In this document: piece by piece, positions 48,066-48,285 of the stretch | Position numbering within the stretch: position 1 is the first letter of the stretch | How the letters are laid out: every line of letters begins with the position of its first letter | Assembly (NCBI GenBank): GCA_016794365.1 | Contig: JAEUKB010000053.1 | Span: 2,599-66,598 of the forward strand | Direction: 5' to 3' | Length of the DNA: 64,000 bases | Source of the DNA: Myxococcales bacterium | GTDB lineage: Bacteria; Myxococcota_A; Polyangia; Palsa-1104; JAEUJZ01 | Made by a program: the position numbers and the translations under genes | Notes under the pieces: generated by a model | The model's input: only the letters and a program-made list of their open reading frames with translations | Told to the model about the DNA's origin: nothing | Database searches by the model: none

Positions 48066-48285
48066 TTAGGAATCGATTAGGAGTCCGTTAGGAGTCCGTT
48101 AGGAGTCCGTTGGGAATCGGTTAGGAGTCCGTTAGGAGTCCGTTAGGAATCGATTAGGAATCAATTAGGAATCAATTAGGAATCGATTAGGAATCGATTA
48201 GGAATCGGTTAGGAGTCGGTTAGGAATCGATTAGGAATCCGTTAGGAATCGATTGGGAGTCCGTTAGGAATCGATTGGGAGTCCA
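48066..48285. repeat. Twenty perfectly phased 11-bp tandem iterons TTAGGA(A/G)TC(G/C)(A/G), each containing GANTC
   Basis: Units start every 11 nt from 48066 to 48275. Two main variants occur: ttaggaatcga (GAATC, also the palindrome CGATTnnnAATCG across unit borders) and ttaggagtccg (GGAGTCC). Stop codons in all frames make it non-coding. Confidence 0.95.

Follow-up and report, generated by a model that had tools for sequence, protein, structure and literature searches.

A phased 11-bp tandem array in an activated-sludge Polyangia genome is one locus of a dispersed, lineage-specific minisatellite family

What is an exactly periodic block of short repeats doing between two genes of an uncultured myxobacterium? 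The question is raised by a 64,000-nucleotide stretch of Myxococcales bacterium DNA (assembly GCA_016794365.1, contig JAEUKB010000053.1, forward-strand positions 2,599 to 66,598; the whole stretch is here called the window), in which an array of 11-bp units lies between the gene for a TonB-dependent receptor-like protein and a helical ORFan. An earlier reading of the letters of the window (the sequence-only reading) had offered a cooperative protein-binding platform, a methylation-sensitive switch, and a variable-number contingency repeat as candidate roles. Here, we report that the array is a single member of a family of interspersed minisatellites that is dispersed over the genome and specific to one lineage, activated-sludge Polyangia (Myxococcota). 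The element in question is as follows.

48066-48285, plus strand: array of 20 in-phase 11-bp units, reading TTRGGARTCSN on the plus strand

Read directly, the array consists of 20 consecutive 11-bp units in a single register with no indels. Tandem Repeats Finder (TRF) reported a period of 11, 19.1 copies, and 0% indels, and a repeat-spacing search (family D1) found a spacing of exactly 11 in 18 successive steps. All 20 units fit TT[A/G]GGA[A/G]TCNN, and each contains GANTC (GAATC in 12, GAGTC in 8), so that the exact phasing and the site in every unit, both noted in the sequence-only reading, were confirmed. Its count of two variants did not hold, as nine unit variants were found, with TTAGGAATCGA (seven units) and TTAGGAGTCCG (five units) dominant and TTAGGAATCAA (two units) and six singletons making up the rest. 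Its description of the array as noncoding was correct, because TAG (within TTAGG) on one strand, TAA (within CCTAA) on the other, and a period that is not a multiple of three close all six reading frames.

An origin of the array by chance is excluded. Outside it, the 8-mer TAGGANTC occurs five times in the window, both strands counted (about five expected from base composition), and GANTC occurs 259 times in the window minus the array (about 226 expected); the G+C content of the window is 0.61. The array is not an assembly artifact, since contigs from an independent run (X6) matched both halves of the 20-unit form with zero mismatches and an array is present at the corresponding position in related strains. 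Assembly depth over the array region equaled that of the flanks in four samples, and chromosomal housekeeping genes (Der GTPase and RsmB) lie within the window.

A scan of one genome per species (185,579 species; pattern, three consecutive TTRGGANTCNN units) matched 44 loci. The group with multiple loci comprised metagenome-assembled genomes of Myxococcales/Polyangia with a G+C content of 0.58 to 0.62, namely, CALMML01 (10 arrays on 8 contigs), DAORGN01 (5 arrays), JAEUKA01 (2 arrays), and JBGAUT01 and CAYTGC01 (1 array each). Another 51 stretches came from scanning metagenomes with a narrower pattern, and the window sequence itself was present in activated-sludge and wastewater metagenome runs. 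When grouped by their flanks, the arrays fell into at least 25 distinct loci of 3 to 12 units with the consensus TTRGGARTCSN, all from activated-sludge Polyangia/Myxococcales. The sequence-only reading had proposed searching related genomes for the 11-mer, and the motif is thus not confined to the window. The flanks of these 25 or more loci share nothing, so the 11-bp repeat is not the interior of a larger mobile element; a miniature inverted-repeat transposable element (MITE) or larger mobile element was rejected for the same reason. TRF run over 504 kb of array loci found no different 11-bp family with four or more copies, and the extra arrays in array-bearing contigs that had not been selected by the search pattern were members of the TTRGGARTCSN family.

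Several observations indicate that the window's own genome holds additional arrays. Contigs carrying an ortholog of one family locus (L056; RNase J-like gene, ~85% identity) in samples X1, X3, X7, and X10 end in an array on both sides, at depths of 19 to 21, 17 to 21, 9 to 10, and 3 to 4, respectively, compared with 19.4, 20.9, 6 to 10, and 3 to 5 for the window in the four samples. Several more contigs at window-like depth also end in arrays, and array k-mers reached up to 490×, against ~20× for single-copy sequence.

Matches in other phyla (cyanobacteria, Chloroflexi, Methanosarcina, Bacteroidota, and others) were mostly single short perfect arrays, often beside unrelated short repeats; as the pattern was permissive and 596 Gb contain many 11-bp microsatellites, we attributed them to chance. 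They include 7 to 11 units of TTAGGACTCAT or TTAGGAGTCCG in Methanosarcina sp. T3 (L035), Methanimicrococcus (L043/L057), and Caldilineaceae (L030), the TTAGGAGTCCG unit of these archaeal and Chloroflexi arrays being identical to one window unit. A separate observation concerns Competibacter-like genomes (Candidatus Competibacter and sludge contigs; L027, L049, L068, L077, and L079), in which a single locus carries an alternating CCCGGAATCCG/TTGGGAATCCG array of 11-bp period with 5, 7, 12, or 18 units depending on the assembly. This sludge bacterium is unrelated, and its variable-number array, although similar in its GGAATC core, is an independent one.

The window holds a second place where the unit occurs, although not in tandem.

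26846-27197, plus strand: scattered, nontandem single units TTGGGATTC, TTGGGAGTC, and TTGGGAATC with near-matches, in the gap between two minus-strand genes

A 190-bp part of this stretch contains three perfect TTRGGANTC sites (~0.008 expected from base composition), and positions 26788 to 27144 (357 bp) contain zero single-nucleotide polymorphisms (SNPs) in strains that differ on both sides. The wider stretch (26788-27220) is flanked by FGE-sulfatase-like and DUF6081 genes, carries its unit copies all on one strand, and had no Rfam match; it may be a decayed array or a conserved noncoding element.

Unit number varies between strains. Orthologous loci differed by whole units (4/6, 3/4, 5/6, 11/12, 4/8, 5/7, 9/11, 6/8, and 7/8), and the window locus itself was recovered with 20, 14, 13, and 9 units. 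The 14-unit allele comes from a strain ~98% identical, whose contig omits exactly 66 bp in three samples. The 13-unit allele, from a strain 91 to 97% identical, was reached via the receptor protein, not via the repeat pattern, and consists of alternating TTGGGAATCGG and TTGGGAGTCSG with one 1-bp insertion; the 9-unit allele was found in other assemblies of that strain. Short-read contigs typically break within the array. The copy-number variation for which the sequence-only reading had suggested looking is therefore seen in short-read assemblies, and the variable-number part of its proposal was borne out; as a contingency repeat, the array has the unit-number polymorphism, but it is not a tract within an open reading frame (ORF) or between promoter elements.

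The genes around the arrays were called heuristically (ORF length and codon-position G+C), and a check of 10 calls against Pfam confirmed real and unrelated genes. On these calls, the arrays occupy short intergenic gaps between codirectional or convergent genes, many of them filling the entire intercistronic gap, and the distance from array to stop codon is usually 0 to 40 bp. At two loci (L006 and L007), the gene takes its final codons and its stop from the terminal unit of the array. Divergent gaps accounted for at most 1 of ~20 loci. Relative to the adjacent 3′ end, arrays were antisense only in 11 cases, sense only in 6, and convergent in 5. The flanking genes (HemN/HemJ, Mo-oxidoreductase/GST, epimerase/serine recombinase, ABC-F, IMPase/YceI, and protein kinases) have no common theme. 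A replication-oriented polarity (KOPS/Ter-like) was also considered; array orientation had no consistent sign of local GC skew, and the idea was dropped as uninformative.

Variation from each array's own majority was counted by position over 109 interior units that were not needed for the search pattern, including those of the pattern-independent array of contig L098, with the following result.

Positions G4, G5, and A6: 0 to 3% variation
Positions T8 and C9: 6% variation
Position T2: 10% variation
Position G10: 15% variation (G in 84%)
Position T1: 16% variation
Positions 3 and 7: 27 to 28% variation, nearly only A or G (position 7 a purine in 108 of 109 units; position 3 a C in six)
Position 11: free (positions 3, 7, and 11 together, 27 to 38%)

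The constrained element is an asymmetric 9- to 10-mer, a GGA-R-TC(G) core after TT, and not the palindromic GANTC, because all but 1 of the 109 units have a purine as the central base and conservation is asymmetric (GGA-R-TC-G). A pentamer with a free central base, as expected of a CcrM/GANTC switch, was not what the units show, and the view that GANTC is the purpose of the repeat is not supported. Neither the gradient of conservation (GGA over TC over TT) nor the purine-only position was imposed by the search. The array that separates the stop codon of hemN from the start codon of hemJ keeps the core in three lineages whose flanking coding DNA is only 74 to 83% identical.

With a little over an even chance in its favor, we lean to a reading that combines the dispersed minisatellite family with slippage dynamics and a sequence-specific DNA-binding factor. 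Arrays would grow and shrink through replication slippage or unequal recombination and would survive, under purifying selection, only where insertion spares genes and promoters. From the position-specific constraint and the long persistence of the core we infer a trans-acting factor, which would recognize the duplex unit once per helical turn, so that the GGA-R-TC core is kept. Such a factor would bind head-to-tail on one helix face and may either use the arrays (by marking or insulating transcription-unit ends or organizing local DNA topology) or drive their spread. The proposal in the sequence-only reading of a platform to which protein binds cooperatively, once per helical turn, thus survives as a generic idea and in modified form, as the best reading of the constraint. 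At the window locus, the 20-unit array fills the spacer between the 3′ end of the ORFan and the upstream region of the receptor gene; if it affected that gene, the effect would be incidental to this locus and would not explain why the repeat exists.

Several points weigh against this reading. The binding factor is putative, proposed from sequence features. Part of the apparent conservation of the core is ascertainment, as the search patterns fixed T1, T2, G4, G5, A6, T8, and C9 in three consecutive units and the rule for array extension allowed only two core mismatches per unit. The array inside the hemN-hemJ operon must be transcribed through, which argues against a strong protein roadblock. 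A position at 3′ ends is equally expected of selfish or neutral insertions after purifying selection, and it rests on neighbor gene calls of which only 10 were checked against Pfam. The unit counts come from short-read assemblies, in which repeats may collapse. More tentative, and to our mind somewhat unlikely, is the specific form in which a dedicated Polyangia DNA-binding protein polymerizes head-to-tail, one protomer per turn, on arrays located where transcription units end and makes the arrays genome-wide boundary or topology elements whose strength is set by unit number; these may be insulators, loading sites for gyrase or a nucleoid protein, or barriers to forks or transcription, as a chromosomal counterpart of plasmid centromere architecture.

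The genes and spacers around the window array are as follows.

45282-47783, minus strand: TonB-dependent receptor-like outer-membrane protein of 833 amino acids with an N-terminal CarboxypepD_reg domain and a GTG start, downstream of the array
47784-48065, minus strand: unique spacer of 282 bp from the array to the receptor start, presumed site of the receptor promoter and 5′ untranslated region
48286-48456, minus strand: spacer of 171 bp from the ORFan stop to the array, with a seven-T run (48392-48386, minus strand) and GC-rich dyads before the run
48457-49722, minus strand: helical ORFan of 421 amino acids with low G+C, its 3′ end towards the array, without a family or structure match

The distances of ~280 bp and ~170 bp estimated in the sequence-only reading agree with those measured (282 bp to the receptor GTG and 171 bp from the ORFan stop), and the TTRGGARTCSN orientation of the array is antisense to both genes. 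Homologs of the receptor carry Plug and TonB_dep_Rec domains and are named TonB-dependent receptors of Polyangia or Myxococcales; the closest named ones are from Polyangia/Myxococcales bacteria at 50 to 62% identity. In other Polyangia, homologs at 62% identity lack an upstream array and have different neighbors, so the array is not a conserved regulatory part of the receptor gene, and a specific link between the two is not upheld. The receptor gene is covered by RNA-seq contigs from wastewater metatranscriptomes. A consensus scan found no sigma-70-like sites around the array, and no sigma-54-like match was found in the 282-bp spacer at a threshold of 8 of 11 specified positions. The sequence CGAGGAATCAA-TGCGAGTCCG at 47804-47824 may be a degenerate relic of two units; it was read by eye and falls below the threshold of the matrix scan. 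Within the receptor gene, a 27-bp tandem repeat (54-bp higher-order; 4.7 copies; 47564-47689, minus-strand coding) in the N-terminal region encodes PAPxGEGPE-like linkers after the signal peptide and is therefore a candidate coding variable-number repeat.

On the other side of the array, an intrinsic terminator at 48386-48429 (minus strand) was unsupported (folding z = 0.11; unflagged by the terminator scan). The 421-amino-acid ORFan had no Pfam match above threshold, no NCBIfam match, and only insignificant PDB matches (E about 0.1), and its sole homolog among 5.8 billion proteins is its own species-level cluster; it too is covered by metatranscriptome contigs. It was rejected as the binder of the array, having no homolog beyond its own species cluster and being absent at other array loci. 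The protein is all-helical and is encoded in a patch with a G+C content of 0.45 to 0.54 (0.61 for the window), with a central Gly/Ala-rich hydrophobic hairpin and a similar C-terminal segment, a layout that, as an impression, recalls alpha-helical pore-forming proteins.

At the RNA and structure level, the window array folds better than its shuffles (z = -2.6 and -4.8), its self-complementarity being due to the junction sequences AATCGATT and GGAGTCC. For arrays whose units have CGC, CGG, or CGT tails, neither strand folded better than its dinucleotide shuffles (z about 0). The palindromic junctions that the sequence-only reading had singled out are thus present in the window array but are a local accident and not a family property, because most arrays fold no better than shuffles; a hairpin, cruciform, or terminator role was rejected as a family feature on the same ground. 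Rfam gave no match for the array, the spacers, or a ~126-nucleotide (nt) element of the window described below, either at the gathering threshold or at E ≤ 1. Array-like RNA contigs in metatranscriptomes were only 41-mers, assignable to no locus. At two loci (L008 and L010), the last unit provides a Shine-Dalgarno-like AGGAA 7 to 10 nt before the start codon.

Against these observations the other explanations can be weighed. It is possible, and we give it appreciable though minority weight, that the family is a neutral or selfish minisatellite recognized by nothing, spread by ectopic repair or gene conversion and expanded by slippage, with a core that reflects recent ancestry and homogenization. 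Whole-unit variation fits this, as do arrays that adjoin stop codons and avoid divergent gaps as purged random insertions would, the absence of an orientation preference (11, 6, and 5 cases, as above), genes that end inside an array unit (L006 and L007), and flanking genes without a functional theme. Homogenization alone, however, would not be expected to give a position-specific gradient (0 to 3% at GGA against 27 to 38% at positions 3, 7, and 11, with position 7 purine only); the core is kept at hemN-hemJ across a flank identity of 74 to 83%, scattered single units stand within the SNP-free intergenic stretch, and there is no known seeding mechanism for a repeat without conserved flanks. The array could instead belong to the receptor gene, as an OmpR/PhoB-type 11-bp operator or as a contingency repeat that tunes receptor expression by its length. 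Head-to-tail 11-bp repeats with a 7- to 9-bp core are the binding architecture of winged-helix response regulators (PhoB/PhoP PHO boxes, ArcA, and Streptomyces antibiotic regulatory proteins [SARPs]), and the array lies upstream of the receptor gene, is polymorphic in length between strains, and precedes a gene expressed in wastewater. We nonetheless find this unlikely, since most family members occupy 3′ ends, convergent gaps, or operon interiors and not promoters, and since receptor homologs at 62% identity lack the array and have other neighbors. The array is 282 bp from the start codon with no promoter detected, and the tract is neither within an ORF nor between promoter hexamers; on/off switching by spacing is not expected because an 11-bp step keeps helical phase.

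A function in RNA, which we consider very unlikely, would make the plus strand a CsrB/RsmZ-like sponge with 20 AGGA motifs, or the minus-strand transcript, a C-rich, G-poor tract, a Rho-loading or anti-Shine-Dalgarno tract or a source of stabilizing hairpins. Every unit does carry AGGA or GGGA on the plus strand, the window array exceeds its shuffles in folding, short array-like contigs occur in RNA-seq assemblies, and AGGAA precedes start codons at L008 and L010; but orientation relative to transcription is mixed, most family members have z about 0, the RNA contigs cannot be assigned to the window locus, and many arrays fill the whole intercistronic gap and leave no room for a promoter or terminator of their own. 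The features of a CsrB/RsmZ sponge were likewise lacking (no Rfam match even at E ≤ 1, mixed orientation, and unconserved structure), whereas the lack of a CsrA gene match in the examined sequence carries no weight. Highly improbable, in our judgment, is a switch in which a CcrM/HinfI-type methyltransferase acts on 20 phased GANTC sites through differential methylation. GANTC is present in 20 of 20 window units and in essentially all family units, but it is a by-product of the longer asymmetric motif (GGA-R-TC-G, purine in 108 of 109), the rest of the window shows no depletion and no notable enrichment of the pentamer (259 against ~226), and CcrM is an alphaproteobacterial regulator while the host is a Polyangia myxobacterium. 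Barely credible is an R1 parC-type centromere or a set of replication iterons of a plasmid or integrated element, the analogy drawn in the sequence-only reading. Phased 11-bp iterons do resemble parC, and a related 12.5-kb contig (L098/L108) looks circular, its ends overlapping by the assembler k-mer. Against this, most of the features that define such an element are contradicted. ParM/ParR, ParA/ParB, Rep, and integrase genes are absent from the block, so that the array has neither partition nor replication genes; the window carries chromosomal housekeeping genes, and block depth equals flank depth in a chromosomal single-copy context. A 31-kb linear contig has the identical gene order within chromosomal flanks, there was no similarity to 72,556 plasmids or 50,697 phages, and at least 25 loci per lineage carry the repeat, one of them inside the hemN-hemJ operon. 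We retain the reading of a dispersed minisatellite family with a putative binding factor, at the strength given above.

The family shares traits with several known systems and is a member of none, being most like short tandemly repeated repetitive (STRR) sequences in kind, repetitive extragenic palindromic (REP) sequences and bacterial interspersed mosaic elements (BIMEs) in placement, mycobacterial interspersed repetitive units (MIRUs) in variation, and parC or PHO boxes in phasing. STRR units are heptamers of heterocystous cyanobacteria. Like them, the family has a very short unit amplified in tandem at numerous intergenic sites within a single genome (CALMML01 with 10 arrays, DAORGN01 with 5), is lineage specific and strain polymorphic, and has prompted the suggestion of a specific binding factor; it differs from the cyanobacterial heptamers in its 11-bp unit of one helical turn, its asymmetric GGA-R-TC core, and its Polyangia host. 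The family resembles REP/BIME in being extragenic, lying after stops, inside operons, and in convergent gaps, being rare in divergent promoter regions, taking either orientation, and occurring in many copies. REP sequences are imperfect palindromes of 20 to 40 bp in enterobacteria and pseudomonads that form hairpins, are mobilized by REP-associated tyrosine transposases (RAYTs), and bind gyrase and integration host factor (IHF), whereas the TTRGGARTCSN family is a direct tandem repeat without conserved hairpin potential; no RAYT (IS200/IS605-like) transposase was noticed among the 10 flanking proteins scanned (flanks of up to 10 kb), in which no dedicated search was made. With mycobacterial MIRU variable-number tandem repeats (MIRU-VNTR) it shares interspersed tandem repeats, intercistronic gaps within operons, and strain-variable unit number, but its 11-bp units are closed in six frames, while MIRU units of 40 to 100 bp contain small ORFs that overlap the neighboring genes.

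Phasing brings two further systems into comparison. The parC centromere of plasmid R1 comprises ten 11-bp iterons bound by ParR, and the family resembles it in its 11-bp period and in its head-to-tail sites on nearly the same helix face, which suits cooperative filament-like binding. However, a plasmid carries parC only once, divided into two blocks that flank the par promoter immediately upstream of parM-parR, and the window array is one uninterrupted block, chromosomal and one of dozens of copies, without par genes; none were found beside it or in the related contigs of 12 to 31 kb. Iterons of plasmid origins, which accompany DnaA boxes and an AT-rich region, are 17 to 22 bp long and lie beside a rep gene, in contrast to an 11-bp unit in a window whose scan showed no rep gene. 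Repeats of the PHO-box type bound by OmpR/PhoB regulators (PhoB, PhoP, ArcA, and SARPs) are similar in having tandem 11-bp units with a conserved 6- to 9-bp core and a variable tail, but they lie in promoters and number 2 to 9 units, whereas the TTRGGARTCSN family avoids promoter-type gaps and reaches 20 units. Searches of plasmids, phages, and viral contigs gave either nothing or four chance matches in giant-virus bins, the BLAST low-complexity filter being able to hide repeats. A literature search for the TTRGGARTCSN motif, for myxobacterial 11-bp repeats, and for GANTC repeat arrays found nothing relevant.

The window contains other repeats and a region of rearrangement. An element of ~126 nt is present in three copies (35646-35778, 37813-37947, and 45162-45293), each just past the 3′ end of a gene, with the core …ACCGTCATGAGGAACC…GCGTACG…AAGTACGTGAGGACCG…GGGTCCGCAGTAGG… and an outer stem that is copy specific yet complementary. 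RNAalifold predicted 45 pairs, 8 of them with compensatory changes. The element is multicopy in metagenomes (depth, 150 to 330 versus 20) and lies directly beside 11-bp arrays at other loci in the same samples; it could be MITE/REPIN-like or a structured RNA. A 43-bp tandem repeat (86-bp higher-order; ~5 copies; 17939-18170; intergenic) has a near-palindrome, GGGTCTTGACCC, in each unit and could be a repeated operator or promoter element. Between 45156 and 58774 (related contigs L098/L108 and L107), gene order differs between strains. In the strain 91 to 97% identical, the block of the MGDG-synthase-like gene, ORFan, array, and receptor joins directly to the block of MFS, GMC/GFO oxidoreductase, and deacetylase genes, the chromate transporter gene (51742-52950) is missing, and the breakpoint is the end of the 126-nt element. 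The 12.5-kb contig, with its k-mer-overlapping ends, looks circular or tandemly duplicated, and the 31-kb linear contig has this strain's gene order in chromosomal surroundings.

Uncultured Polyangia are abundant in activated sludge, and we found no description, in the literature searched, of an interspersed repeat family for them. The REP, STRR, and MIRU families have served as strain-typing markers and have shed light on how gyrase and IHF bind, on mRNA stability, and on genome plasticity. The arrays described here break short-read assemblies and are ready markers for following strains in treatment plants. If neutral, the family would be a documented case of a minisatellite colonizing “safe” intergenic sites. 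If bound, its asymmetric 11-bp unit of exactly one turn would rank among the clearest natural platforms for cooperative head-to-tail binding to chromosomal DNA.

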